Numbered from the stretch's first letter, positions 5,193 through 50,125 are shown. The stretch is 64,000 nt of DNA from Candidatus Omnitrophota bacterium (GCA_042570405.1 JBHPGR010000004.1:4474-68473); one strand, 5' to 3'. The notes: generated from the sequence alone by a model not told the origin. Numbers and translations are program-made.

Positions 5193-5650
5193 TTTGTAAA
5201 GAACCGGCGGCTATCGGGAGGGGCTTTTTCGGTTAAAACTTTCTTTGAAAGATGAATCAGATAGATCGAAGCGCCGATTATAGCCGCTAAACCAAAAAAT
5301 AACACAAACTTCTCTATTGCGGGGTGCTTGGCAACATCTTCTACATAAGCGTATCGGGCAATATAGCCTAAATAAACGTACATCAGTGAAGTCGGCATCC
5401 TTCCGATAGCGGAAGCGACCACAAAATCCTTGAATTTCATCTTTGTTATTCCGCAAATATAATTAAGCAGCATGCTGTTGACTACTGGGACATTCCTTAA
5501 GATCATCAGCATCTTCCATCCGTCCTTTTCGATGATCTGATCGATCGCCTTTAACTTATCGTTTCGCTCGATCTTCCTGGTAATGCTCTCACGCAGGAGG
5601 TAGCGCGCCAAAAGAAACTTACTCGCAGAGGAGACCGTTGAGCCGATCAC
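5189..5650 (-). pseudogene. 5'-truncated copy of the DedA/TVP38-TMEM64 family gene found intact at 9109-9843
   Basis: It aligns with the C-terminal roughly half of the 9109-9843 product (KF.LARYLLRESITRKIERNDKLKAIDQIIEKDGWK...). It lacks the N-terminal TM helices, begins at a GTG with no SD, and contains a 77-nt block identical to 9452-9528. Confidence 0.6.
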
Positions 5651-5696
5651 TACAACTACAAGTCCCCCTGCCTAAATTATGTTCTTTGATCCGTTT

Positions 5697-5778
5697 TATA
5701 AATTGTTTGTGTATCCGGTGTAATATGTCCCATTTTTACATTCAACCATATATACGCAAAAATGTGCCCTACTTTCAT
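5697..5778 (-). pseudogene. Decayed N-terminal remnant of a second GIY-YIG gene
   Basis: The DNA aligns with 5106-5192 (ATGAAA-GTAGGGCACATTTTTGCGTATATATGGTTGAATGTAAAAATGGGACATATTACACCGGATACACAAAC...). It carries a 1-nt deletion after codon 2 and an in-frame TAA where the intact gene has GAG. Confidence 0.55.
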
Positions 5779-5827
5779 CATTATTATGTTAAAAGTTTTT
5801 TTACGATATACTTTTGACCTGATGGTA

Positions 5828-7633
5828 TTATAAATTTTTTATCGTTGAAGCGTCACTCCAGTTATAATTAGTTTCAAGAAGCAGGATCGTCTGTATTAAT
5901 GCCATATGCGAGTACCCCTGCGGAAAATTGCCCGTTAATCTGCCTGAATTTATTTCAATATCCTCTGCAAGCAGATTAAATCTGTTCAGGCAGCGCAAAA
6001 TGTTTGAGAGCATCTCTCTGCTCTTATCTTCTTCTCCGGTCAGATAAAGCGCATTTATCATCCAGAATGTGCAAACGATAAAAGCATTTTCCGGCCGGCC
6101 GAATCCGTCATCGCATAGATAACGGAAAGTAAAACCTTCTTTTGTCAATTCTTCATGTGTCCTACGCACAGTGTTTATCATCATCGGATCATCCCGGCTG
6201 AGAAATCCGTAATGAAGCATCAAAAGATTTGCTGCATCCAGCTCTGAAGAACCGTAATACATCACGAAAGACTTCCGCTTTTCATTCCAGCCGTTCTTAA
6301 GGATATCCTCCCTTATTTGCGAAGCTACTTTCTTCCACCTCTCCTCATTAGCGGGTTTTTTTATAAAAGTGGCTATTTTAGCGGCCCTGTCCATTGCAAC
6401 CCAGCTCATTAGCTTGGAGTGGACATAGTGCTCGGGGTTACCCCTGCGCTCCCATATCCCGTTATCCGGCTCCCTCCATTTCTTGATCACATTATTGGCA
6501 AGGTCTCTGACTACCGTCCATATCTCCTCGTCGATCACTGCGCTGCCCCTGCGGCTGACGATAAGGAATGTGTATATCGCCTCTATGAGATGGCCATAAA
6601 TGTCATTCTGTATCTGCTTATAGGCATTGTTGCCGATGCGTACCGGCTTAGAGCCCTGGTAACCTGCAAGATGGCCCAATATCTTTTCTTCCAACAATCT
6701 CTCACCGTTTATCCCGTACATGACAGAGATGTTTTCGTGTTTCAGTAATCTCCTGTTCAAGACAAAATTCATATAACGGCTTGCCGAACGCAAATGATTC
6801 ATCCTGGTGTAAAGATCCACGATCATTGAGGCATCGCGGATCCAGCAGTACCTGTAGTCCCAATTACGCTCTCTTCCTATGATCTCCGGCAGGGATGCCG
6901 TTGGCGCGGCGATAACAGCTCCTGAGCGCTGATATGTCAGCAGCTTTAGGGTTATAGCAGAGCGGATAAGCAGGTCTTTGTATCTGGAGGGGGCTCTTGT
7001 CCGGTATGCCCAGTCTAACCAGTATGTCTTCGTCTTTTCGTATTCGATGTATATTTTATCTGTATCGATGTCCTGTAATTTTTCATGGTAAGAAAAAAGG
7101 AGAAAGGAAGTACCCTTTAATTCGATAGGCTCGCCCCTGACTATTTTATTGACATCCAGATTACTGTATAAATAAAAACTTACATATTCCCCTGTCTTTG
7201 AGACGATCTTTAGAAGGTTTTGCTCAAATAAAAATTCCCCTTCGCTTGACGCATAGTTCGGCTTTGGTTTTAATTCGATTATTATCTTAGGGTTGCCGGA
7301 AATAAGAAGTATATCCCGATGCACTTCAGGAGGACAATAATATTCCTCCCGCGAAGTAAGAAAGCGAGGCATATAATCCCTTACTTCAAAAACCCCCTCT
7401 TTAGTCGTAAATACCGTCCTCAGTATCGGGGTATGGACCACATAATTCTGCTCTATCTTTATTATTTTCTCAGCGGATATCTTAAAATGCCCCCCGATAC
7501 CCGTATCCAGCATCTTTGCAAAAACCGAAGGCGAATCAAAAAAGGGAAGGCAAAGCCAATCAATGCTGCACTCCGATGAAATCAATGCTGCGCTGGTGCA
7601 GTTTCCTATAACCGCGTAATCATAATTTTTCAT
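5828..7633 (-). CDS. Glycoside hydrolase family 15 (glucoamylase/glucodextranase-like)
   Basis: 601 aa with GH15 catalytic-domain motifs NWDYRYCWIRDAS and EPDNGIWE. Confidence 0.85.
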   Translation of the reverse strand: MKNYDYAVIGNCTSAALISSECSIDWLCLPFFDSPSVFAKMLDTGIGGHFKISAEKIIKIEQNYVVHTPILRTVFTTKEGVFEVRDYMPRFLTSREEYYCPPEVHRDILLISGNPKIIIELKPKPNYASSEGEFLFEQNLLKIVSKTGEYVSFYLYSNLDVNKIVRGEPIELKGTSFLLFSYHEKLQDIDTDKIYIEYEKTKTYWLDWAYRTRAPSRYKDLLIRSAITLKLLTYQRSGAVIAAPTASLPEIIGRERNWDYRYCWIRDASMIVDLYTRMNHLRSASRYMNFVLNRRLLKHENISVMYGINGERLLEEKILGHLAGYQGSKPVRIGNNAYKQIQNDIYGHLIEAIYTFLIVSRRGSAVIDEEIWTVVRDLANNVIKKWREPDNGIWERRGNPEHYVHSKLMSWVAMDRAAKIATFIKKPANEERWKKVASQIREDILKNGWNEKRKSFVMYYGSSELDAANLLMLHYGFLSRDDPMMINTVRRTHEELTKEGFTFRYLCDDGFGRPENAFIVCTFWMINALYLTGEEDKSREMLSNILRCLNRFNLLAEDIEINSGRLTGNFPQGYSHMALIQTILLLETNYNWSDASTIKNL

Positions 7634-12536: not shown

Positions 12537-13016
12537 TTATTTACCCTTTAATCCCTTTTTTAAACCCTGACCGCGCTGCTTTGCGTTTTCAATTCCTGTC
12601 TGCTTTGCCGCCTTTTCAACCTTTTCCTTTCTTTCTCTGACCTCTTCTCTGGCCCTTTGCTTAGCCCTTTCGGCTTTCTTCTCTGCTTTCTCCGCCTCTT
12701 TCTCTGCCAGGGCCTTTGCTTTCTCGGCCTCTTTCTCCGCTTTGACCTTTCCTTTTTCTTTCTGCGCCTTCTTCGCTTCTTGCTCTGCGCGCTTTGCTGC
12801 TCTGGACGCCTTACGCTCTTCCAAAGTCTTGGCTTTTTCCTCTCCGGACTTTCCTACCGTGGCAAACCAGTCAGAGACACGGTTGAATACCGCATTCTCA
12901 CTTGCATGCTCATAGCCTTGAGCGCTTGCTCCCTTCTTGTCCTTTGGCGCAGCAAATACCGAAGAACAAATCATCAAAAAAGAAAATGCTAACAATAAAA
13001 TGGTGAATCTTTTCAT
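12537..13016 (-). CDS. Secreted K/E/A-rich low-complexity protein
   Basis: Start moved to MKRFTILLLAFSFLMICSSVFA (a signal peptide) preceded by AAAGGAGGG. The mature part is dominated by KAEKEAEKAK-type repeats. Confidence 0.5.
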   Translation of the reverse strand: MKRFTILLLAFSFLMICSSVFAAPKDKKGASAQGYEHASENAVFNRVSDWFATVGKSGEEKAKTLEERKASRAAKRAEQEAKKAQKEKGKVKAEKEAEKAKALAEKEAEKAEKKAERAKQRAREEVRERKEKVEKAAKQTGIENAKQRGQGLKKGLKGK

Positions 13017-13062
13017 CCCTGCCCTCCTTTCAAGGTTATCTTTAAAAAATATTAAACCGCTA

Positions 13063-13674
13063 TTACCTGCTGAAGTGTTTTTTAATGTATTCGTTAAGAA
13101 GTAGATTGGCGTCATCCTTACACTGCCCGCACACCGTGCTGACCTTAGTCTTCTCCTGAAGCTCGATGAAGGTGCGCGCCCCGTCTAAAACCGCATGCTC
13201 GATCTCATGGTCGGTTACGTTCATGCACTGGCAGACTATGCGTACCTTCTCCTTTTTGATCTTATCCTGCATCCCGTTGCGGGTATAATAATCGTTTATT
13301 GCTGCGCGCAAGGCTTTATCACCTAACACCGAACAATGGATCTTGTGCTCCGGCAGGCCGCCAAGTTCTTTAGCCAGGTCCTTCGGAGAAAGATGATAGG
13401 CATCCTCCACCTTCATACCCTTGACCATCTCAGAGAGTATCGATGTGCTGGCGATGGCACTTGCACAACCATAGGTCTTCCATTTGCAGTCGCTGATTGT
13501 GCCCTTCTCCCTATCGACCTTGATCACAACGATCATCTCATCCCCGCATTTTATGTTGCCGACCACACCTTTACCGTCATGCGGGAAACCATCTATATCA
13601 TCAAGCACGTTGCGCGGATGGATGAAATGTTCCTTTAATTTATCTGAATAAACCCAGCGACCTTTAGTATCCAT
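13063..13674 (-). CDS. nifU: NifU-type Fe-S cluster scaffold (IscU-like N-domain plus BFD-like [2Fe-2S] domain)
   Basis: GNIKCGDEM...YGCASAIASTS carries the three scaffold Cys. CQCMNVTDHEIEHAV...CGQCKDD is the BFD-like domain. Confidence 0.8.
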   Translation of the reverse strand: MDTKGRWVYSDKLKEHFIHPRNVLDDIDGFPHDGKGVVGNIKCGDEMIVVIKVDREKGTISDCKWKTYGCASAIASTSILSEMVKGMKVEDAYHLSPKDLAKELGGLPEHKIHCSVLGDKALRAAINDYYTRNGMQDKIKKEKVRIVCQCMNVTDHEIEHAVLDGARTFIELQEKTKVSTVCGQCKDDANLLLNEYIKKHFSR

Positions 13675-39605: not shown

Positions 39606-41384
39606 TCACCGCAACTGCGCCTCTTCTCTGCTAAAGATCCCCTCCTGGCCGCTGAAAAGCCGGCTAAATTCGCTGTTTTTCCCCTTTAGATCCTGCGGCT
39701 TACCCACGATCATCTCGCCCGGCCTGAAGAAGCAATAGGCCAGGCCTGCTTTCATCACCGTAGATAAGCGGTGGGATACGGTAATTAATGTTAGAGCTTC
39801 TTGCGAACTCTTTATATTGGAGATAATCTTCTCCTCGCTAGCAGAATCCATCGAAGACATCGCTTCATCAAGGATCAGGATCTTGGGCTGTTTGATCAGG
39901 GCGCGGGCGATGGCGATCTTCTGCTTCTGCCCTTCAGAGATCTTACAGGCATCTTCACCGATCACGGTCTGATAGCCTTGCGGCAGAATCCGGGTGAATT
40001 CATCTACGCCTGCTATCTCTGCTACCTTGAGTATCTCGTCTTTCGTGGCTCTGGGTTTGGCGTAGCTGATATTATTCTCTATAGTATCGTTCCACAGTAA
40101 TGCCTCCTGTAGGGCAAAGCCTATTTGGCCCTTTAGGCAACGAAACTTTAAATCCTTGATATTATGCCCGTCGATTAAAATCTCACCCTCCCAGGGGTCA
40201 TAGAGCCTGGCGATTAAATTCAAAAGCGTGGTCTTGCCGCAACCCGAAGGCCCGGCAATAGCAATATGGCTTCCTCCCTCAATAGAAAAAGACATCTTCT
40301 TTAAGATCAGTTCTTGGGGCTTATACCCGAAATTGACATTACTAAAGGATACCTGTCCTTTTGTAAAGAGTATATTTTTTGCTCCCTTTGCCTCTCTGAC
40401 CTTGGGCTTCTGGTCTAAAACCTCAGCAATCCTGCGGCAGGAGACCAAACCGATGGTAACGGTATGGAAGAAAGAGGCGAATTGGTTCTGCAGGCCGATT
40501 AACTGATACAAGTAAATCATAATCGCTGCCAGGCTGCCTATGGTTAGTTGCCCCTTGATCACCTGATATCCGCCGTAAAGGCTGAGCAGGCCGATAATCG
40601 CCTTGGTAGTTACTTGGATGATCGTCGAATTAATCATCCCCATCCTAACCGTCTTGACATTTATGCGTATATTTACAATTACCTTCTTAAGATACTCCCT
40701 GATACTACTGATCTCTTTTCCGAAGACCTTGATTAATTTGATGTGTGAAAGCGTCTCATCTAAATTAGTGAATATGCTCTCGGAATTTCTCAAAAGGCTC
40801 TCATAGACCTTTTTTATCTTTCGGCTAAAATAGTAAGGCGGGATATATAAAACCGGAGCCAGGCACAAGGCAACCAGAGCCATCCTCCACTGAAGATAAA
40901 ATACGATGACTAAAATAAAGAGCAACTTGGTGAATATAAAAAACGCCTGGGGCAAAGTATTAGTGATAAATCCGGTGATCGCGCTTAAATCGTTCTCTAT
41001 CTTATAGATCTGTTCTCCGGTGGATTGCTCGAGAAACCAACTAAAGGAGAGATTCTGGGTATGCTTAAACAACTTTTTCTGTAGGTCAAAATTTACCCTT
41101 CTTTTGATATACTGCTCTAAAAATTGCTTTGTCACCGCCAGCAGCTCGTTGATTAAAAAAATACCTCCTGCAATAAGGCCGAGTAAAATAAATCTTCTTA
41201 AGTCTTTATTCAGGAACCCTTGGTCAATCACGAGTTTGGTTAGATACGGATTAAGCAGGGCAAGCAGGGCCGTAGCATTACTTAAGATAATTATCACCAG
41301 CCACTTTTTGCGGTAGGGGAAAAGGTGCTTGAGAAACCTAAGGATCAAATTGATCTGCGCCTTAAACATCTGTTTTCTTTTCAA
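39606..41384 (-). CDS. ABC exporter, fused permease and ATPase (MsbA/bacteriocin-exporter type), no C39 peptidase domain
   Basis: Six TM helices, then Walker A GPSGCGKTT, signature ISEGQKQKIAIARAL and Walker B ILILDEA. Confidence 0.85.
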   Translation of the reverse strand: MKRKQMFKAQINLILRFLKHLFPYRKKWLVIIILSNATALLALLNPYLTKLVIDQGFLNKDLRRFILLGLIAGGIFLINELLAVTKQFLEQYIKRRVNFDLQKKLFKHTQNLSFSWFLEQSTGEQIYKIENDLSAITGFITNTLPQAFFIFTKLLFILVIVFYLQWRMALVALCLAPVLYIPPYYFSRKIKKVYESLLRNSESIFTNLDETLSHIKLIKVFGKEISSIREYLKKVIVNIRINVKTVRMGMINSTIIQVTTKAIIGLLSLYGGYQVIKGQLTIGSLAAIMIYLYQLIGLQNQFASFFHTVTIGLVSCRRIAEVLDQKPKVREAKGAKNILFTKGQVSFSNVNFGYKPQELILKKMSFSIEGGSHIAIAGPSGCGKTTLLNLIARLYDPWEGEILIDGHNIKDLKFRCLKGQIGFALQEALLWNDTIENNISYAKPRATKDEILKVAEIAGVDEFTRILPQGYQTVIGEDACKISEGQKQKIAIARALIKQPKILILDEAMSSMDSASEEKIISNIKSSQEALTLITVSHRLSTVMKAGLAYCFFRPGEMIVGKPQDLKGKNSEFSRLFSGQEGIFSREEAQLR

Positions 41385-42432
41385 TCATCCTCTGCAGCCG
41401 GGCCAATTCACAGTAATATTCTATGGGCTCCTCCTCTTTATCCTTCTCTAGATATGCCCTTCCCGGACACCAATTACATAATCTCTTTAGACTACAATCC
41501 CTGCATGCCGAATCGGTTAAAAAGCTCTTTTCTCTTACCTGAGATATTAATCCATCTAAAGCATATCCCAGATCCGTTTTAAGCAGATTAAAATCCGTTT
41601 TGCGCATCAGGTTGCAAAGGAAGATATTCCCCAAAGGGTCGATATGAAAACCATCCCCGCCTCCGATGGCGCAGGTAAATAAGTTAACGGTGGGGGGGTG
41701 GGGGTTGGAATCCTGTAATCGCCAATCATCGCAAGCTGATAGCCGTCTATCATCTGCGTCTAAACCCAAAATCTCTTTTGGTGAAATCCTTAAATTACAG
41801 GGAGTTTTGTCGCCGTTAAGCCGCGGATACAAAATATGGCTGGGCCTAAACTCTAAGCCTAAACCCTCGACAAGCTTCTTGATCTTAGTCAACTCTTCTA
41901 AATTATCCTTGGTGACCTGGGTCTTGATTTTCAAGGGGATTCTTTCTTTTATAAGCAAATTAATCCCCTTCATGAGCCTTAAAAAAGAACCTTTAACCCC
42001 GGAGATCTTCTCATATAGTTGCTCGGTAACCGCGTTCAAGGTCAGCTCAATCACAAAGGGAGGTTTGCTTTTCAAAAATTTAACTATTTTCTTATCTAAT
42101 AAATAGCCGCTGGTAAAGACACTGACAATAAAACCTTTTTGCTTAGCATAAGAATAGATCTCCAAGAAATCAGCCCGCGCCAGGGGATCCCCTCCGGTCA
42201 GGCAGAGCCAGATTACCCCGGCCTGATAAACCTTATCTAAAATAGTTTTTACTTCCTGAGTCTTAAGTTCTTCTTTAAAATAGGCAGGCTGATTATAGCA
42301 ACCTGTGTAGCAATGTCGGCAGTACAGGGGGCATCTAAAGGTCAGCTCAAACTGGCAGACATTGGATCTTTTGATGCGCAAGTTTTTCTTATGCGTCCTT
42401 AAACTAAAAATTCTATATTGGATTTCTTTCAT
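41362..42432 (-). CDS. Radical SAM/SPASM domain peptide-maturase-like enzyme (paralog 3)
   Basis: FRCPLYCRHCY is the CxxxCxxC motif and the C-terminal Cys cluster is CRDCSLKRLCNWCPGRA. Start moved to MKEIQY, which gives the same N-terminal length as the two paralogs and removes a 104-nt overlap. Confidence 0.8.
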   Translation of the reverse strand: MKEIQYRIFSLRTHKKNLRIKRSNVCQFELTFRCPLYCRHCYTGCYNQPAYFKEELKTQEVKTILDKVYQAGVIWLCLTGGDPLARADFLEIYSYAKQKGFIVSVFTSGYLLDKKIVKFLKSKPPFVIELTLNAVTEQLYEKISGVKGSFLRLMKGINLLIKERIPLKIKTQVTKDNLEELTKIKKLVEGLGLEFRPSHILYPRLNGDKTPCNLRISPKEILGLDADDRRLSACDDWRLQDSNPHPPTVNLFTCAIGGGDGFHIDPLGNIFLCNLMRKTDFNLLKTDLGYALDGLISQVREKSFLTDSACRDCSLKRLCNWCPGRAYLEKDKEEEPIEYYCELARLQRMIEKKTDV

Positions 42433-42445
42433 ATTCACAGGGCTT

Positions 42446-44065
42446 TTATAAAAGTGGCTTGCTTCTCGGGATGAGGTCCGGGGGTTGCTGGCCAACAATG
42501 TCAACAATTGTTCTATGTTTTTTAAAGGAATATTCAAGGATTTTATCATAAATTTTAAGCATCTTTATCGCTTTAGGTTTATCTATATTTCCCAGGGTAT
42601 GTTTAAACGGATAAAAAAATCTGAAGGGCAGTCTTTTATCATAAATAATCTCTATACCATAATTTCCCGGGTTTAAGAATGCGGGGTTTTTAGGGACCTG
42701 ATAATATACATTGAAGATGCCGCAATCTGTGTTTAGTGCTTTTGAATGGTTTGCCAGGAAAGAAATCGTATCAAATGCCTCTTCAACAGTTTCAGAGGGC
42801 AGGGCGATTATCGATTGAAAATAAACATTTAATTTCAAATTACGGCTATCTTTTATAATCCTTTTGATCACCTCTACCCTGGTTCCCTTGCCTATAAAAT
42901 CAAGGACCCTTTGGTTTATGGATTCCAAACCAAATCCCAGCATCGAACAGCCTGCCCGCTTGGCTAAGCTAAGGGTCTCTTTATCAAATCCATCGTCAAA
43001 ACGCGCCCAGGCCCACCAAGATAGCTTTATCTTTTCTTTTAAGATTTTCTTTGATATTTGCCTCATTTGTGATGGAGAAAATACGGCATTTGATATCATC
43101 AGATGTCTTATCCGATATTTTCTAATGAGTTTTTTTATATCTTTTATAACCAGGCCCGGCGATTTCTCCCTGTATCTTGATTTAGGCAGCGGCAAATCCA
43201 CGCAAAATATGCATTTATTCCAGTAACAACCGCGTGAAGTTTCAAAGGAAGCGGTTAGTTTTCTTTTTGAATTAAAGTATTTTCTAAGATTTAAGCCGTC
43301 GAAGTCCGGGGCGGGAAGCATGTCCATATCTTCTTGGGTGATTCTTGAGCTAAGCTTCCAACTCCCCTTATCTTGATAGATGAGATTTGGGACCCTGGAT
43401 AACGCCTTATTATTTCTAATCGCATTTATCAGCTTAAATAGCGGTGTTTCGCCTTCAAAATAAATAAGGTAGTCATAAAAACTATTAAAATCATTTCTTT
43501 TTTGAAGTTCTTCGCGATAGTAGGAAACCCACTGCCCTCCAATGACTATTTTTGTTTCGGGGAAATATTTCTTAATCAAATATCCGAAGGTGAAGCTCGC
43601 CATGACCTGAGAAGGGCAGATTATTGAAAATCCTATAAGAGAAAAATCTTGCTTTTTTATTTTTAGGAAAACCTGTTTATAAAAAAAATCAACAAAGGGG
43701 TTTTCTTTTTGATCAGCGATGTAACGATGCAGAAATTTTGCTGAAAGCATCATTTCCGTAAAGGCAAAAGACGAGCCCGGATTAACCTCGAAATCATAAT
43801 CAGACGAAATTTCTGCTCCTTTATATTGTAAGATTTTATGATAATAAACCTTTTTTTTAATTTTATTCTTCCTATATCCTGAAGTAAATATCTTCTCCAG
43901 CCTATTTTTTTTTATATAATCAAAATAACATATATTAAGATCGCCCTGCGCTACATTTATTCCTTTTGACTTTAAAAAACCGGCAAGGGCAGGAGTCCCT
44001 AAGGGCGGAACAGCTCTGTCGTAAGTAGGGGGAATAAATAGAGCTATTTTTTCTTCTTTGGCCAT
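42446..44065 (-). CDS. B12-binding domain radical SAM protein
   Basis: N-terminal Rossmann-like B12-binding region plus RGCYWNKCIFC (CxxxCxxC). Confidence 0.8.
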   Translation of the reverse strand: MAKEEKIALFIPPTYDRAVPPLGTPALAGFLKSKGINVAQGDLNICYFDYIKKNRLEKIFTSGYRKNKIKKKVYYHKILQYKGAEISSDYDFEVNPGSSFAFTEMMLSAKFLHRYIADQKENPFVDFFYKQVFLKIKKQDFSLIGFSIICPSQVMASFTFGYLIKKYFPETKIVIGGQWVSYYREELQKRNDFNSFYDYLIYFEGETPLFKLINAIRNNKALSRVPNLIYQDKGSWKLSSRITQEDMDMLPAPDFDGLNLRKYFNSKRKLTASFETSRGCYWNKCIFCVDLPLPKSRYREKSPGLVIKDIKKLIRKYRIRHLMISNAVFSPSQMRQISKKILKEKIKLSWWAWARFDDGFDKETLSLAKRAGCSMLGFGLESINQRVLDFIGKGTRVEVIKRIIKDSRNLKLNVYFQSIIALPSETVEEAFDTISFLANHSKALNTDCGIFNVYYQVPKNPAFLNPGNYGIEIIYDKRLPFRFFYPFKHTLGNIDKPKAIKMLKIYDKILEYSFKKHRTIVDIVGQQPPDLIPRSKPLL

Positions 44066-44075
44066 TATTTTCTTA

Positions 44076-45005
44076 TCAGAGCTTTCTTACAAAACTTATA
44101 ATCTTTTTATTATTCAGAAACCCCAGATTATAACAGTTTACTTCTTTAAGCAAATCCTGACAAAAGGAAACTATATTCTCTAAATTCTGCTTATCCCAGA
44201 AAGTAGGAAAAAGTGCAGGATAAAGCTGATTAAAGGCCGCTTTTTGAGAGATCTGTCTTGTATTATTATTTGGGGAGTGGTGAATAAAAAACAGTCTTTC
44301 AAGCGGGGCTGCCTCCATCTTTGAGTAAAGATAATCGCTGAAATCACCGTACCAGGGACAACCATAGATAAAATATCTGCCGTTAAGCCTGCGCACAATA
44401 ATCCGGTCGTCATTTAAGATCATTGCCCGGCTGAACCGGTTCCAGATCCTGGCAGTGGTAGATTTTCCTGCGCCGGATTTCCCGGCGAAGAGCAGGCCCC
44501 TGCCGTTAATATCTTTTAATCCTATCCCGTGCACAATGATCCCCTTTTTGTGCAGGGCTAAATAGCTGATTAAAAGCACCTGGATAAAATCATAAATCAG
44601 ATCATCCGGCCTCCAGGCCTTGCCTTTTTCATCCTTAGGTATAAGATAGGCAGTTACTCGGTCAAAATTTTTATTTACCAGCATCAGTTGTTGCTTGCTT
44701 TTTAAAGGACTTTTATAGATGTAGCTATCGCGTTTTTTAAGTAAGCGCCAGTTTTCGTTGCCGTCCTGAAAGTGTCGGGTAATGAATATCGGCTTTGCAT
44801 TCTGTACTTTGGGTAATTGATCCACTATCTTTACCTTGATTCTGATCTGCGGTCTTGCTCTGCCGTGATAGAAAAAGTTTTTAAAACGCTCGGGGATACG
44901 CTGCCTCTCTTCCTTTTTGGTGTAGGGCTTGAGCCTAAACTTACTTTGCATCCGGATGATGATATCGGAAATCTTCAGCCTCACTGTCACATTCTTCATT
45001 TTCAT
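44076..45005 (-). CDS. HPr kinase-related P-loop protein (HprK C-terminal-domain-like)
   Basis: GIIVHGIGLKDINGRGLLFAGKSGAGKSTTA. Start moved to MKMKNV because the 17 upstream codons in the track are the heptamer repeat array. Confidence 0.6.
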   Translation of the reverse strand: MKMKNVTVRLKISDIIIRMQSKFRLKPYTKKEERQRIPERFKNFFYHGRARPQIRIKVKIVDQLPKVQNAKPIFITRHFQDGNENWRLLKKRDSYIYKSPLKSKQQLMLVNKNFDRVTAYLIPKDEKGKAWRPDDLIYDFIQVLLISYLALHKKGIIVHGIGLKDINGRGLLFAGKSGAGKSTTARIWNRFSRAMILNDDRIIVRRLNGRYFIYGCPWYGDFSDYLYSKMEAAPLERLFFIHHSPNNNTRQISQKAAFNQLYPALFPTFWDKQNLENIVSFCQDLLKEVNCYNLGFLNNKKIISFVRKL

Positions 45006-45014
45006 ATGCCTTAT

Positions 45015-45045
45015 ACTTACGACTGAAAACTTACGACTTACGACT
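45015..45045. repeat. Heptamer array A (acttacg act gaaa acttacg acttacg act), solo arm
   Basis: Read directly from the sequence. It overlaps the last codons (SRKS*) of the 45031-46083 gene. Confidence 0.8.
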
Positions 45046-46083
45046 GAATAAGTCACTCACTAGCTGCGCCTTAGCGCGGCTCTCAGGTGCACAGGAAGTA
45101 AAGCTGCGGTTATAAAGCCAACTCCTTGCCGGGCAACGTTTACAATAAGCTTTCAGGCTGCAACTGCTGCATTGATAATCCTTATCTAGCGCGATACCTC
45201 TCTGGAATCTATTTAATCTCTGCCAGCATTCTTTTAAAGAAGACTCCAATATATTATATCTGGGATGATCGATCATCAGGCATAGCTTCAATTCTCCCTG
45301 AGGGGTAATTGCTGCCTGGGTCAAACCTGCCCCACAGGCAAATAGATTGCCGTTATTATTTTCGTAGCCTGTGATTTTTAAATCACAAGCGTCAGAAAAA
45401 TCCTCTTTCAGCCCTGATTGTTTTACCATTCTGGCTATAGTCTTGCCTCTATAACGATACGGCTCTTCAGAACCATCCAGGCGCCGGAAAAGTGAATCAT
45501 CCAATCGGTGCGGGGCGCCTAAGGAGGTAGAAAAATCTTCGATTTCTTTGATCTCGGATGCGTTATCTTTCAAGACGCAGGTCTTAAACCCTAAATTGAC
45601 CCTGTTTTTGTGTAAAATATCAATGGTTTTAAATACACGATTACGGGAACCTGCGACACCGCTAATACGTTCAAAACTCTTTTTTCTCATTGCCGGAATA
45701 GTAATATCCAGCTTATTTATTTTTAAGCGATGTAACTCTTGAGCGATCCCTTGATTAATCAGTGAGCCATTAGTATATACGATCATCTGGAAGCCCTTTT
45801 CTCTGGCATAGCGCAATATCTCTATTATATCATTTCTAATAAAGGGTTCGCCTCCGGTAAAACCTAAATAAAAACAACCTATATCTTTCAACTGGTCTAA
45901 AATAGAGAATATCTCCTTAGTCTTAAGTCCTCCTTTTCTTCTATAGCTTTGCGGCAGATAACAGTGTTTACACTTAAAATTACACCTGTAGGTGAGCTCA
46001 AACATTACCCGCAGCGGGAAGTTTTCTTCCTTTGCGGAATCGTGGATCTGCTTCCAGAAACTATTATACGATCGAGTTCTCAT
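45031..46083 (-). CDS. Radical SAM/SPASM domain peptide-maturase-like enzyme (paralog 2)
   Basis: YRCNFKCKHCY, and C-terminal CSSCSLKAYCKRCPARS. Confidence 0.8.
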   Translation of the reverse strand: MRTRSYNSFWKQIHDSAKEENFPLRVMFELTYRCNFKCKHCYLPQSYRRKGGLKTKEIFSILDQLKDIGCFYLGFTGGEPFIRNDIIEILRYAREKGFQMIVYTNGSLINQGIAQELHRLKINKLDITIPAMRKKSFERISGVAGSRNRVFKTIDILHKNRVNLGFKTCVLKDNASEIKEIEDFSTSLGAPHRLDDSLFRRLDGSEEPYRYRGKTIARMVKQSGLKEDFSDACDLKITGYENNNGNLFACGAGLTQAAITPQGELKLCLMIDHPRYNILESSLKECWQRLNRFQRGIALDKDYQCSSCSLKAYCKRCPARSWLYNRSFTSCAPESRAKAQLVSDLFSRKS

Positions 46084-46089
46084 TATTTT

Positions 46090-46120
46090 AGTCGTAAGTT
46101 ATAAGTCGTAAGTTGTAAGT
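46090..46120. repeat. Heptamer array B (agt cgtaagt tataagt cgtaagt tgtaagt), inverted partner of array C
   Basis: Read directly from the sequence. By hand alignment 27 of 31 positions match the reverse complement of 46471-46501. Confidence 0.85.
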
Positions 46121-46464
46121 TTCTTCTGAAATCCAAAAAGCATTCTTCCTATCTCATCGCACATCTCATTTAAGTTCTTGGAATCTCCTTCTTTAAGATA
46201 GCCTAAATCTTTGGCAAGCAGGATATGATATTTAGTCTCCTCTAAAGATCCGTCGGCTATACTGATAAAATATGCATACTCTTTTTTACTTTTCCTTTTA
46301 AAGCCTTCGACTACATTTGTCGGTATTGAGGCGGCTGACCTTCTTATGTTTGCTACAAGGCCGAATCTTTCTTCTCTTGGAAAATCTTTAGTGACTTTAT
46401 AAATCTCAAGAACCAATCCGTGTGCTTTTTGCCAAACCTTTAAATCCCTAAAAGTTTTTATCAT
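46099..46464 (-). CDS. Four-helix-bundle protein of the 23S rRNA intervening-sequence (IVS) protein family
   Basis: FRDLKVWQKAHGLVLEIYKVTKDFPREERFGLVANIRRSAASIPTNVVEGF.R.S.KEY..F..IA.GSL.E is the family signature. Confidence 0.8.
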   Translation of the reverse strand: MIKTFRDLKVWQKAHGLVLEIYKVTKDFPREERFGLVANIRRSAASIPTNVVEGFKRKSKKEYAYFISIADGSLEETKYHILLAKDLGYLKEGDSKNLNEMCDEIGRMLFGFQKKLTTYDL

Positions 46465-46470
46465 CTTTTT

Positions 46471-46501
46471 ACTTACGACTTACCACTTACGACTTACGAC
46501 T
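46471..46501. repeat. Heptamer array C (acttacg acttacc acttacg acttacg act), inverted partner of array B
   Basis: Read directly from the sequence. It overlaps the last codons (SRKS*) of the 46487-47560 gene. Confidence 0.85.
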
Positions 46502-47560
46502 CATCTCTTTAGCCGTCGCCTCAGCCAGCTGGCAATAATAGGGGACCGGCGCCTCTTGATCCCCAGTCTCTAGATACGCCCTTGCCGGGCAGTAATAACA
46601 GAGCGGCCGCAGGCGGCAGGTCCTGCATTTAGAATCAGTTTTAAAGCGCGCATTTAAAACTTGGGGAAATACCTTATAGAAGCCTTTTTTAAAGGATTGG
46701 ATCTTTAAATCAACGCTGAATCTATCGGATAAATCACAGAATCTTAACCGGCCGTAAGGATTGATAAAAAATTCCTGCCGCCAGGCAGTGCAGTTATAGA
46801 GGTAATCAGCTCTTCTTTTCAAGCGGGGAAACTTACAATCAAGGCTACTTTTATACTCCTCCCAAAAATCCGGGTCCTGCTTTTTTACTTTTAATATTTC
46901 GCTAAAGGACAGCCTGTAATTTGTAGGCGTTTTATCCCGGTTAAACTTAGGATAGATCAGCGGGTCGTATTTAAAATGATACTTGCCGTTTTGCTTACCT
47001 AAAAAATCATCAGCAAAGGCCTTGATCTTGCCGATCTCATGCTTGTTCTGCTTAAGGCAATTAGATTTCAGGATCAAAGGGAGTTTTTTCTCCTTTAAGG
47101 CCTGAATCGCCTTCATCGCTTTTAAAAAAGAGCCGGGAACCCGTGTAATCGATTCGTAGGTTTTTTTAGTGATACCATTTAAAGTGATCTCTATAGAAAA
47201 GGGGGGGAATTTTAGTAAAAAATCGATGACTTCGCTCGTCAATGCCTGAGCGTTAGTAAAAAGAGTGACCATAAAACCCTTTTTTTTGGCATAGGCATAA
47301 ATCTCTAAAAAATCATCTCTTACCAGCGGCTCTCCGCCGGTAAAGCATAAACTAAAGCATCCCTGTTTTTGCAGTAAATCAAGGATCCTTTTCCATTCGC
47401 TGGTACTTAATTCCTTTTCTTTTTCCTCCAGCCCTTTAGAATAGCAATGGATGCAGTTTAAGTTGCATCTATAGGTAAGCTCAATATGGCCGGAAAAAGG
47501 ATGGCTTTCTCTTTTATTCAGCAGCCGGTAAAAAAAACGGCCCGATTGTAGCTTTTTCAT
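46487..47560 (-). CDS. Radical SAM/SPASM domain peptide-maturase-like enzyme (paralog 1)
   Basis: YRCNLNCIHCY, and C-terminal CRTCRLRPLCYYCPARA. Confidence 0.8.
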   Translation of the reverse strand: MKKLQSGRFFYRLLNKRESHPFSGHIELTYRCNLNCIHCYSKGLEEKEKELSTSEWKRILDLLQKQGCFSLCFTGGEPLVRDDFLEIYAYAKKKGFMVTLFTNAQALTSEVIDFLLKFPPFSIEITLNGITKKTYESITRVPGSFLKAMKAIQALKEKKLPLILKSNCLKQNKHEIGKIKAFADDFLGKQNGKYHFKYDPLIYPKFNRDKTPTNYRLSFSEILKVKKQDPDFWEEYKSSLDCKFPRLKRRADYLYNCTAWRQEFFINPYGRLRFCDLSDRFSVDLKIQSFKKGFYKVFPQVLNARFKTDSKCRTCRLRPLCYYCPARAYLETGDQEAPVPYYCQLAEATAKEMSRKS

Positions 47561-47578
47561 TTCATACCGCTGATACTG

Positions 47579-47839
47579 CTAAGTTTGTGTCCCTGAGGAA
47601 ACTGCCAGATAGCCGACACTCCCTGAGCTGCCGCAGGCATCAATCAAGGTCCTCGCTGACTCCACACCAGGTTTTACAGCTTCCATACAATAAGTTGGTA
47701 AATTTAGAAATCTTCCTTTCCGGTTACCAGCCAGCCAAACCCAACCGTGATTTCCAAAACACTCACAGGCTAATACTGCCTGTTCAGGGTTAAGTCTTAT
47801 GCGGGCGATCTCTGGTCTAAATCTTGGTTTTCTTGGCAT
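47579..47839 (-). CDS. Candidate RiPP precursor peptide (86 aa, 4 Cys, Ser/Gly/Thr-rich C-terminal tail)
   Basis: It lies between the PqqD-like gene and the first SPASM maturase. It has a strong SD (AAGGAGGAGAA-ATG), no recognisable enzyme motifs, and the sequence MPRKPRFRPEIARIRLNPEQAVLACECFGNHGW...CGSSGSVGYLAVSSGTQT. Confidence 0.5.
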   Translation of the reverse strand: MPRKPRFRPEIARIRLNPEQAVLACECFGNHGWVWLAGNRKGRFLNLPTYCMEAVKPGVESARTLIDACGSSGSVGYLAVSSGTQT

Positions 47840-47856
47840 TTCTCCTCCTTTTTTTC

Positions 47857-47935
47857 AGTTGTAAGTCGTACGTCGTAAGTCGTAAGTAAAAGCAGATACA
47901 TACCACTTACGACTTACTACTTACCACTTACGACT
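47857..47935. repeat. Heptamer arrays D1/D2 forming a 31-bp imperfect hairpin with a 17-nt loop
   Basis: D1 is 47857-47887 (agt tgtaagt cgtacgt cgtaagt cgtaagt) and D2 is 47905-47935 (acttacg acttact acttacc acttacg act). 27 of 31 positions are complementary by hand alignment. Confidence 0.85.
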
Positions 47936-48216
47936 TAAACTACCGCTTTAATCTCTTTTAGGTCCTTAAGTAACTTTTCCAGCTCCTTATCCGCTTGCCT
48001 TGGCGTCGTGTCAAACTCCTTAAGCACCTGCTTCTTGACTTGGGATAGCGGTTTTTTCCCGTCAAACATCTCCCAGACGCGCGCTGCGACTTTATTCAGG
48101 GAATAGATACAGCTTATATCATCGGATGTCTTATAAATAGGCACCAGTATCCTTTCATCGCCGATTACGCGGGTGACCATATTAGGGTTTTTGCGAATTA
48201 CAGCACTTGCCTCCAT
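47935..48216 (-). CDS. PqqD-family peptide chaperone (RiPP recognition element)
   Basis: 93 aa with the PqqD pattern: RVIGDERILV...IYSLNKVAARVWEMFDGKKPLSQVKKQVLKEFD...ADKELEKLLKDL. Confidence 0.8.
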   Translation of the reverse strand: MEASAVIRKNPNMVTRVIGDERILVPIYKTSDDISCIYSLNKVAARVWEMFDGKKPLSQVKKQVLKEFDTTPRQADKELEKLLKDLKEIKAVV

Positions 48217-49697
48217 CAGTATTTACCTCCTTTCAGCTGTTTTTCCAAAATTAACATCTTCTTCTTAAGACTAATTAGCCTACTCTTCCCCTCTTGCTTT
48301 AAGTGTAATTTATTTAAGCGGTTTAATCGCCTTTTAAAGAATTTATAATGAATCCTTACATATTTGATCATTTCGTCTTTATCAGCAATCTTTCTGGAAA
48401 CCCGCAAAAGGCCGATCAGCGGTTCTAACGTGCCCCAACCTAATCTTAAGGTATCTTTGTAAAAAATAGCGGCTTGAGAAAATTCTCCCTCCTTTTCAAA
48501 AATTCTGCCTAAAAGATAGTAGCCTTCAGGGTCTAAAGGTACCCTTCGCCTGTAAGAAAGCAGCCTTTCTTTGGCGCTTTTAAAATCTCCTGAATTGAAT
48601 TCTGCCTTTGCCAGGTTGAATAAAACCTGCGGTTTTACTTTTTTAAATGCCCCATTATTACCGCAGTAGTTTAATGCTGAACCTAAGAGATTTTTTGCCT
48701 TCTTAAGTTCTCTTCTTCCTAAGGCAATCGTCCCTAAGCCTGAAAGCGCTCCGGGATTATTTTTATCTACCCTTAAAATCCGAAAGAACTCTTTTTGCGC
48801 CAAAGAAAACTTCCTGAGCGACAGATAAAGCGCTCCATAATTGTTATCCTGGCTGCGGTAGGCAGGGTTAAGCCTGGCGGCTTTCTGGTAGTAAGCCTTG
48901 CTTCCTGTTGATTCAAAGAGATTGAAATATTTTGCTGCGCGATGACTGATTGCAAGTCTGCCTTTGAATTTGGAGTGCGAGAAACAAGCAGCGACCTCAT
49001 CCCCTAGATACCTGTATTTCATCGGCGTGAAACCACCGTTGACTGAATAGGCGATGGTAGTAATCTTAGGGGATTTAATCTTTTTCTTGAGGATACTTGT
49101 TAAATCTTTTGGTGAAATCCAGACCCTTCTCTTGCTGATATTCCGGGTATTCTCTGCGCTCAAAAGGCTGTCAATCACTAGAAAATCAGTATCGATATCA
49201 AGGAGTACATCCCTGCCTAAAACTGGTAGACTATCCAGAGTGCAGACCACAAAATTCCTCCCCAGGCACCTCATAGAGATCGAATCATTACTACTTTCTT
49301 TTAAAATAACCTTGCCGTTATTCTGAGGCCTAGTTAATCTTTTTAGAGTATTTTTGATTATCTTCCGGGATTTTTTGAACTCCTTGGCGCCTCCGGGGAT
49401 AACCCAGTAAAAATTATTAACTATCCCCTCCTCCATCGCCGGGTAGATGTAATTGCCGATGTTAGTCTGTTTATTGAAATCCTTTTCGTAGTGTAAGAAA
49501 TTAAGCGAATGTTCTAATTTTGCCTTTAGCTCTTTAATACTTCTTGCTTCGCTGACAACCTTTTCTATTGGCCTGGCCGGATAAACCACAAAATCAATGT
49601 GGGCATCCAGGTGTACCAAATCTAACCCCAAAACCTTGTGTCTGCGCCAGATCTTTAGAACCTCATCGTGATCTTCTACCAGAAATACATTCTTCAT
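48216..49697 (-). CDS. UPF0489-like (arginase/deacetylase-fold-like) N-domain fused to TPR repeats
   Basis: N-terminal VFLVEDHDEVLKIWRR...LVHLDAHIDF resembles the UPF0489 signature. The C-terminal half has several TPR-like repeats (YYQKAARLNPAY, ALYLSLRKFSLAQKEF, LLGRIFEKEGEFSQAAIFYKDTL). Confidence 0.45.
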   Translation of the reverse strand: MKNVFLVEDHDEVLKIWRRHKVLGLDLVHLDAHIDFVVYPARPIEKVVSEARSIKELKAKLEHSLNFLHYEKDFNKQTNIGNYIYPAMEEGIVNNFYWVIPGGAKEFKKSRKIIKNTLKRLTRPQNNGKVILKESSNDSISMRCLGRNFVVCTLDSLPVLGRDVLLDIDTDFLVIDSLLSAENTRNISKRRVWISPKDLTSILKKKIKSPKITTIAYSVNGGFTPMKYRYLGDEVAACFSHSKFKGRLAISHRAAKYFNLFESTGSKAYYQKAARLNPAYRSQDNNYGALYLSLRKFSLAQKEFFRILRVDKNNPGALSGLGTIALGRRELKKAKNLLGSALNYCGNNGAFKKVKPQVLFNLAKAEFNSGDFKSAKERLLSYRRRVPLDPEGYYLLGRIFEKEGEFSQAAIFYKDTLRLGWGTLEPLIGLLRVSRKIADKDEMIKYVRIHYKFFKRRLNRLNKLHLKQEGKSRLISLKKKMLILEKQLKGGKY

Positions 49698-50125
49698 TTT
49701 CTTACAAATAAGAATTGATAGGCCTTAATGACCAAGCGCCATAAAGGCAAAATAAGTAAAATAATGCGATTGATCAACCTCTGCCCTACTCCATCAACAT
49801 AGGCTATCCTATTTTCTTTCATCACGCCGATGACCTTGCCTAAAACTCTCTCCTGATTTATGGCTTCCGGCTGACTCCAAGATGCATCTCCCCGGGTATA
49901 GATCGAACATTGGCCGTTTGATTTGCTCTTTCTGACCAGACGGTGGCAGACTAATGAGCTATTGGACCTATGCAATACCAGGTCTCCTACTTCCAATCGA
50001 GATAAAGGCGTTTTTTTAACAAGCAGTTTATCCCTTTCCTTTAGAAATGGCCACATGCTAAAACCCCGGGCCTCAAAAAAAGACAGGTCTTGAGCTTGCT
50101 CTGCAACTTTAATCGCCTGATCCAT
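49694..50125 (-). CDS. S24/S26-family (signal-peptidase-I/LexA-like) serine peptidase
   Basis: ARGFSMWPFLKERDKLLV (GxSMxP), GDLVLHRS, HRLV, RGDAS. Confidence 0.6.
   Translation of the reverse strand: MDQAIKVAEQAQDLSFFEARGFSMWPFLKERDKLLVKKTPLSRLEVGDLVLHRSNSSLVCHRLVRKSKSNGQCSIYTRGDASWSQPEAINQERVLGKVIGVMKENRIAYVDGVGQRLINRIILLILPLWRLVIKAYQFLFVRK

Follow-up and report, generated by a model that had tools for sequence, protein, structure and literature searches.

A gene of a protein family first seen in rRNA intervening sequences (IVSs) lies between two maturase genes of a biosynthetic operon, in a stretch of DNA from a Candidatus Omnitrophota MAG. Why is it located there, and what are the inverted arrays of heptamers that enclose it? 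We regard the feature as one copy of a dispersed, transposase-less hitch-hiker cassette, composed of a PF05635/TIGR02436 gene within two inverted arrays of about four heptamers each, and give this reading a probability of about 0.7. Here, the window means the whole 64-kb stretch of DNA that was analysed.

The gene and its two arms

The cargo gene (46099-46464, minus strand) encodes a four-helix-bundle protein of 121 aa. The initial annotation assigned it to the 23S-IVS protein family, and profile searches confirmed the assignment: the protein matched PF05635 (23S_rRNA_IVP) over residues 6-110 with an E-value of 2.8e-40 and 137.3 bits (cut-off, 33.8), and TIGR02436 (four helix bundle protein) with 124.6 bits (cut-off, 24). 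The conserved family motif, (G)xxRxxxSxxxNxxE (Zhang 2013; Lin 2006), is present as R42-x3-S46-x3-N50-x2-E53, so both profile score and motif are those of a PF05635/TIGR02436 member. The leading G of the motif is replaced by N39 in the window protein and by Q in most relatives, and S46, N50, E53 and E76 are invariant in alignment A1. Among PDB chains, the nearest solved structure was 2GSC (XCC0516; E-value, 2.2e-20). Exact-protein look-ups returned no record matching the window protein or P0122.

Avd of diversity-generating retroelements (DGRs) has a homologous four-helix-bundle fold, and pentameric relatives are known (2GSC; bAvd). We give almost no credence to the idea that the gene encodes the Avd subunit of a DGR. 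The protein did match bAvd (PF22296, 43 bits) and NF033474 (51 bits) weakly, but the latter score is below the Avd equivalog cut-off of 80, the neighbours are radical-SAM, PqqD and ScmC-like genes with neither a reverse transcriptase nor a template/variable repeat pair adjacent, and repeat analysis returned heptamer arrays only. The DGR Avd identity was rejected on these grounds.

The gene is bracketed by two arrays. Array C (46471-46501), the upstream arm, consists of four NNTAAGT units in the minus-strand transcript; on the plus strand it reads ACTTACG, ACTTACC, ACTTACG and ACTTACG followed by ACT. Array B (46090-46120), the downstream arm, consists of four ACTTANN units in the transcript, and on the plus strand reads AGT followed by CGTAAGT, TATAAGT, CGTAAGT and TGTAAGT. 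Tandem Repeats Finder gave a period of 7 and 4.4-4.6 copies for each array. In the repeat search the two arms, 31 nt each and spaced by 350 nt, were complementary at 27 of 31 positions (87%). The initial annotation had described the gene as bracketed by two 31-nt heptamer arrays and had counted the same 27 positions by hand; the former agrees with the sequence, with Tandem Repeats Finder and with the position of the ORF, and the latter with the computed repeat comparison. Its four 7-nt copies per array also stand, but its unit, YGTAAGT, fits only six of the eight units, and the general unit is NNTAAGT.

It had further been proposed that the arms pair in the transcript and loop out the ORF, and that folding the minus-strand transcript of 46060-46530 would be a way to check this. 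The C/B stem was present in both the MFE and the centroid folds of this 471-nt transcript (-111 kcal/mol, z -2.5), and pairing over 23 nt survived when the entire 2,981-nt polycistronic stretch was folded. The looped-out ORF is thus predicted by all three folds.

The arms are joined closely to the genes on both sides. Radical-SAM gene 1 takes its final codons and its TAA stop from array C (...AKEM-SRKS*), and the cargo ATG is 6 nt past this array, with no clear Shine-Dalgarno sequence. The cargo stop codon arises from a variant unit within array B, and the start codon of radical-SAM gene 2 is 6 nt past array B. The outward-facing NNTAAGT orientation gives a TAA in each of the three frames. In a promoter/terminator scan, no promoter-like or terminator-like site was found at any of the five arrays of the operon. 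Thus, the stems are not intrinsic terminators, and the cargo gene has no obvious promoter of its own.

The host operon and its other arrays

The host cluster (window 39606-50125) is a SynChlorMet-like RiPP cluster. It contains genes for an S24-type peptidase, a TPR/UPF0489 protein, a PqqD/ScmD-like peptide chaperone (47935-48216, minus strand), a putative precursor peptide (47579-47839, minus strand), the radical-SAM/SPASM maturases 1 (rSAM1; 46487-47560, minus strand) and 2 (rSAM2; 45031-46083, minus strand), a ScmC-like protein, a B12-radical-SAM protein, a further radical-SAM protein and an ABC exporter. The matches to ScmC/ScmD/ScmE/ScmF-type proteins are weak. The 86-aa precursor (MPRKPRFRPEIARIRLNPEQAVLACEC...) is homologous at its N-terminus to a 65-aa ORF of the syntenic cluster L202. 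The additional B12-binding radical-SAM gene (42446-44065), whose best match is a RiPP C-methyltransferase, is absent from L202.

Arrays B and C of the initial annotation are real, but three more arrays of the same operon (A, D and E) had been overlooked. Each of the five lies at a gene junction of one minus-strand operon, and their orientation alternates along the transcript: E sense, D antisense, C sense, B antisense and A sense. The two-unit heptamer pattern had 13 matches in the 64-kb window against 0.22 expected, a number reached in none of 100 shuffles, and all 13 are confined to 45029-47939.

Array E (47897-47937, minus strand), which reads as about five NNTAAGT units in the transcript, and array D (47857-47887, minus strand), with ACTTANN units, are the 5' and 3' arms of an empty hairpin (47857-47937) between the PqqD-like gene and the precursor gene. 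The hairpin has a loop of about 8-17 nt and a predicted energy of -36.8 kcal/mol (z -5.45), and E pairs with D in the 2,981-nt fold. Array E holds the stop codon of the PqqD-like gene. Array D lies upstream of the precursor gene, about 17 nt (47856-47840) from its start codon at 47839, and the Shine-Dalgarno sequence falls in this gap. Array A (45015-45045, minus strand), at the junction of radical-SAM gene 2 and the ScmC-like gene, is a solo arm whose NNTAAGT units are broken by TTTTCAG; in the 2,981-nt fold it had no array partner. Radical-SAM gene 2 ends inside it (...SRKS*), and the likely ATG of the ScmC-like gene (45005) follows 9 nt downstream. The PqqD-like gene, rSAM1 and rSAM2 all have their stop codons within sense arrays, and ...SRKS* is the C-terminus of both maturases.

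Syntenic clusters in relatives, which the initial annotation had named as the comparison to make, were found in L201, L202 and L203; in these clusters the four-helix-bundle gene is absent and period-7 arrays are missing throughout. Three pairs of neighbouring genes overlap there: rSAM1 with rSAM2 (by 23 nt, or GTGA), rSAM2 with ScmC (ATGA), and PqqD with the precursor gene (L202 included). Since the genes overlap at these three junctions in the relatives, all three array sites interrupt formerly coupled junctions. In the window, the conserved C-terminus of rSAM1 runs to ...AKEM, after which the array encodes SRKS*, and the rSAM2 N-terminus, MRTRSYNSFW, aligns with MKSQSYNDFW of a relative. By this comparison the cassette is an insertion between radical-SAM genes that overlap in relatives, in agreement with the earlier claim that it was inserted between the two maturase genes, and two more junctions of this operon have received copies of the repeat, one as an empty hairpin and the other as a solo arm.

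Five arrays exactly at the junctions of one operon and none elsewhere in the 64 kb, with one hairpin just upstream of the precursor gene, would also be expected of a host-adaptive device, in which the RiPP operon recruited the stems for processing sites and for precursor/maturase stoichiometry, and the protein is an RNA-binding regulator of the cluster. We consider this quite improbable, because the syntenic clusters of the relatives work without arrays or gene, the same cassette is present in cas operons, par loci, transporter pairs and rRNA, and close relatives of the cassette have unrelated flanks, as described below.

Several other features of these sequences were recorded. Directly upstream of the array-free radical-SAM cluster of L201, a 168-aa gene (5334-5840) has a weak match to Y1 transposase (PF01797). 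Coding over the 64 kb of the window is extremely biased to the minus strand, which has 46 of the 48 ORFs that reach 180 aa; the two on the plus strand both overlap minus-strand ORFs. Inside the minus-strand ORF 12537-13115 there is a 33-nt tandem repeat (12684-12755) of 2.2 copies that has a 12-nt period within it.

Relatives of the gene and of the arrays

Relatives of the gene were collected from 80 metagenomic loci, which gave 74 non-redundant genes; this main sample is one clade with at least 49% identity. Alignment A1 was too diverse for the locus scan, and A2 was used instead. An array was called when at least two TAAG upstream, or CTTA downstream, of a gene occurred at period 7, and 335 ORFs served as controls. 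The upstream TAAG array was found at 54 of the 74 relatives (73%) against 13 of the 335 control ORFs, the downstream CTTA array at 55 against 6 (2-4% of controls), and both arms at 45 against 2.

The typical arm is about 25 bp with two mismatches, and the commonest count is four units. The units vary among loci (TAAGTCG, TAAGCTN, TAAGGAT, TAAGTGG and others), and within a locus they are matched: in 38 of 45 loci units are common to both arms, with a mean Hamming distance of 1.36 versus 2.02 after permutation. Most arrays of the gene-first loci (120 of 143) are within 100 nt of the four-helix-bundle gene, and the remaining ones are mostly empty hairpins of the same unit family. Unit class and protein tree agree: nearest neighbours belong to the same class in 35 of 56 cases versus 14 expected (p < 0.0005). 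Of the 63 cassette pairs whose proteins are 70% or more identical, 53 have unrelated 1-kb flanks on both sides. The median dN/dS among the genes is 0.16, and the four-helix-bundle protein is under purifying selection. A Shine-Dalgarno sequence precedes 24 of the 74 genes. These data show that gene and arms are a unit that recurs across bacteria, diversifies together and is present in unrelated contexts. The small mobile cassette, which the initial annotation had offered as its second choice, is well supported by the association with the arms, the shared units, the tracking of unit class and the unrelated flanks.

The longest direct word at the arm boundaries averaged 3.66 versus 3.60 after permutation, and profile searches of the window cluster found no transposase or integrase; the target-site duplication and cognate transposase that characterise an IS or a MITE were thus not seen, which leaves mobility without a mechanism. 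In the arms, G.U and C.A mismatches were counted at 37:27 (p = 0.26), so that this test for RNA-level selection was not significant and arm pairing could matter at the DNA level instead.

It is conceivable that the arrays are REP/REPIN-like ssDNA hairpins copied in trans by a Y1 (RAYT or IS200/IS605-type) transposase or another host enzyme, with the gene as a passenger and RNA processing irrelevant. Y1 transposition is expected to leave no target-site duplication, the mismatches show no strand-specific G.U bias, many empty hairpins and solo arrays have no gene, and a weak Y1_Tnp match lies beside the related cluster in L201. We think this explanation unlikely. No Y1 transposase is near the arrays in the window, the unit class of the arms co-diversifies with the protein, purifying selection acts on the protein across dispersed copies, and arms on 73% of the genes are hard to square with a mere passenger.

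In an Rfam search, none of 40 loci of the clade was in rRNA. Intergenic or operon-junction insertion is the usual habitat of this clade, and members of the family inside cas operons were already noted by Zhang et al. (PMC3936711). To the knowledge of the initial annotation, an IVS-like cassette inside a biosynthetic operon was undescribed; the placement is no oddity, such junctions being the norm for the clade. In L124/L125 (2101-4147), three tandem four-helix-bundle genes lie within 2 kb, with a further pair of inverted arrays in F..R order about 1.5 kb upstream. In L181 (1140-1634), an F..R pair encloses a 153-aa gene for a LigT-like 2'-5' RNA ligase and no four-helix-bundle gene.

More distant homologs (32-47% identity) are on annotated plasmids of cultured organisms, where they are wedged in operons: between cas6 and cas4, between cas10 and cmr3, in a parA-like/parB pair and in a transporter pair. 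Culturable carriers include Anabaena sp. 90 (cas6/cas4 junction), Picosynechococcus PCC 7003 (cas10/cmr3 junction) and Nostoc punctiforme PCC 73102, whose gene is NPUN_RS35280 on pNPUN02. Most of the homologs lie between inverted period-7 arrays that are composed of other units, namely TCAGGAG in Nostoc, TCAGAAT in Trichormus, ACAGGTG in Anabaena, AAAAGGG in Geminocystis and GGTTCAA in Riemerella. There are exceptions to the inverted-arm rule. At the cas6/cas4 junction of Pseudanabaena galeata pPg_01 (L204), the arrays are direct, with (AAAGCTA)x14 upstream and (AAAAGCC)x10 downstream; Calothrix has an array on one side only, and the period in Gemmatirosa is 8.

One homolog connects the family with rRNA. 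The copy of Azospirillum lipoferum lies within a complete 23S rRNA gene and is therefore a true IVS, and its arms, of 4-5 C[AG]GA[GT]GA units, pair around the ORF. The IVS-type label of the initial annotation is apt, as this 23S IVS has the same gene family and the same inverted heptamer-array arms.

Stop codons in all frames were considered as a universal rationale for the design. This was rejected, because GGGAATC, AAAAGGG and ACAGGTG contain no stop codon, and stops in all frames cannot universally explain the design when such units exist.

The arrays were also searched for in their own right, with the pattern AGTCGTAAGTCGTAAGTNNTAAGT and one genome per species, which gave at least 120 loci. 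Those listed include cyanobacteria, Bacteroidota, Gammaproteobacteria, Planctomycetota, Patescibacteria, Chloroflexota and others, with cultured isolates among them. A first, narrow HMM under-detected the gene beside arrays (it missed L109), and iteration brought the number of array loci with a four-helix-bundle gene, among the matches listed, to 8 of 120. Counted by array, 3-4 of 148 among the matches listed have an adjacent gene; genes directly abut arrays, again among the matches listed, in L037, L109 and, frameshifted, L076. Heptamer arrays alone thus appear far commoner than the gene. Since most CGTAAGT arrays have no adjacent gene, arrays can spread or persist without it. Host ORFs of at least 100 codons end within 32 of 132 arrays in other genomes, versus none in controls.

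Arrays of the identical CGTAAGT unit are present in no fewer than eight phyla, with cultured isolates among the carriers (L001-L120); examples are L001, L020, L022 and L078 of Chroococcidiopsis, L012, L019 and L039 of Lewinellaceae, and L044 of Thiohalophilus. This distribution reflects either horizontal transfer of the repeat or convergent origin. The longest array among the matches listed, with 25 NNTAAGT units, is at the end of a Bacteroidia contig (L018, 4-178), and arrays of 12-16 units are present in several further loci. In L008 (3428-3635) and L016 (3999-4160), different heptamers (GGTTACA, GGTTCCT, CCCTAGT, ACTTATT) are nested side by side; these sites look like a preferred landing place for such repeats.

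These data also bear on plain slippage, by which the arrays would be ordinary simple-sequence repeats (SSRs) from polymerase slippage that are incidental to the gene. Heptameric SSRs are over-represented in bacterial genomes, for which slippage was proposed as the cause (PMC4692102), and strains of Coxiella differ in heptamer copy number (PMC4990558). Slippage is nonetheless strongly disfavoured, and we judge it very improbable: all 13 matches of the window are in one 3-kb stretch against 0.22 expected, arrays accompany 73% of the genes versus 2-4% of controls, the arms are matched within each locus, and adjacent arrays of opposite orientation, among the matches listed, are arranged F..R in 25 cases and R..F in 2.

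Known repeats and the possible action of the cassette

The rRNA IVSs with an S23p/PF05635 ORF (Leptospira, Coxiella burnetii, Brucella, Haemophilus, Azospirillum lipoferum) encode the same protein family, enclose the ORF in a stem of terminal inverted repeats about 28-31 bp long, and carry no transposase. In Coxiella, tandem GACAGAT heptamers precede the ORF, the terminal stem is 28 bp, and excision by RNase III is proven (PMC4990558). In the window, too, terminal inverted repeats give a long predicted stem enclosing the ORF, and the arms are of about 4-5 tandem heptamers, as in the Coxiella and Azospirillum IVSs. The classical 23S rRNA IVSs have the same design as the window cassette. There are also differences. 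The window copy lies between two radical-SAM CDSs of a protein-coding operon and not inside a 23S or 16S rRNA helix, and the Rfam search of the 64-kb window gave no family match. The TAAG core of its unit puts a stop codon in every frame. Whereas the ORF of Coxiella is in decay, purifying selection acts on the clade of the window gene.

Knowledge of heptameric tandem repeats in bacteria goes back to 1990, and the quantification of their excess to 2007. MacGregor (2015) described TAACTGA arrays with stops in three frames in Beggiatoaceae, cyanobacteria and Bacteroidetes, with 'no mechanism evident' for their spread (PMC4679880). The arrays of STRR (cyanobacteria), TAACTGA and GGGAATC (Xanthomonas) resemble those of the window in that 7-nt tandem units, in about 2-6 copies, lie at gene junctions. 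In both, the forward orientation stops three frames, upstream ORFs end in the repeat, arrays often end right before a start codon, and the phylogenetic distribution is patchy; convergent inverted pairs, as in the window, are common for GGGAATC. The papers on these repeats treat them as stand-alone elements whose origin is unknown and connect them with no protein family, whereas the window arrays are the arms of a gene cassette. The table of Rehm (2015) gives XCC0516 a GGGAATC array of 28 nt that lies on its start codon (PMC4692102); since XCC0516 is itself a PF05635-family member, this is further support for the generality of the design. Apart from one observation in Coxiella, our literature search found no publication that makes a general connection between the PF05635 family and heptamer arms.

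The five arrays of the operon can be compared with mobile hairpins as well. Neisseria Correia elements, which are processed by RNase III, and REP/REPIN hairpins are small inverted-repeat elements that lie at operon junctions and fold in the transcript. As with these elements, empty hairpins coexist with fuller copies. Unlike them, the window type has arms of tandem heptamer arrays and not unique terminal inverted repeats, shows no target-site duplication, and in its full version carries a four-helix-bundle gene instead of a transposase.

The hitch-hiker cassette may act as follows. It would be carried on, and co-transcribed with, the operon transcript. The outward-facing TAAG arm would halt incoming ribosomes in all three frames, and the next ORF would start a few nt past the arm, often without a Shine-Dalgarno sequence. 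In predicted folds, the arms form a duplex of about 27 bp in the transcript. By analogy with the rRNA IVSs (Coxiella, PMC4990558), for which RNase III excision is proven, the C/B stem is probably an RNase III substrate, as the initial annotation had proposed; its cleavage would excise the cargo mRNA and separate the transcripts of maturase 1 and maturase 2, which would then be uncoupled. The Avd-like pentamer probably binds the repeats or takes part in their maintenance.

A wider proposal is that the four-helix-bundle pentamer is the dedicated factor of a new transposase-less mobile element with heptamer-array ends, that it recognises RNA or DNA stretches of about 4-5 tandem units, and that it promotes the copying or maintenance of both the cassette and the empty hairpins. 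The rRNA IVSs, STRRs, GGGAATC and TAACTGA repeats and the heptamer excess would then be one phenomenon. This proposal is tentative, and we hold it to be possible at rather less than even odds.

The origin and function of bacterial heptameric repeats are stated as open in the literature, and the cassette ties these repeats to the IVS gene family. Because heptamer arrays and gene occur together as one cassette, both in a true 23S IVS and at operon junctions, the two puzzles share one testable hypothesis. For annotation, genes of this family that are read as having cas- or cluster-associated functions are probably hitch-hikers. The arms rewrite the ends of host genes, as in the SRKS* tails, and uncouple overlapping genes, and they may thereby alter operon expression in RiPP and CRISPR loci. 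The main interest of the cassette is that it joins two long-unexplained features of bacterial genomes.
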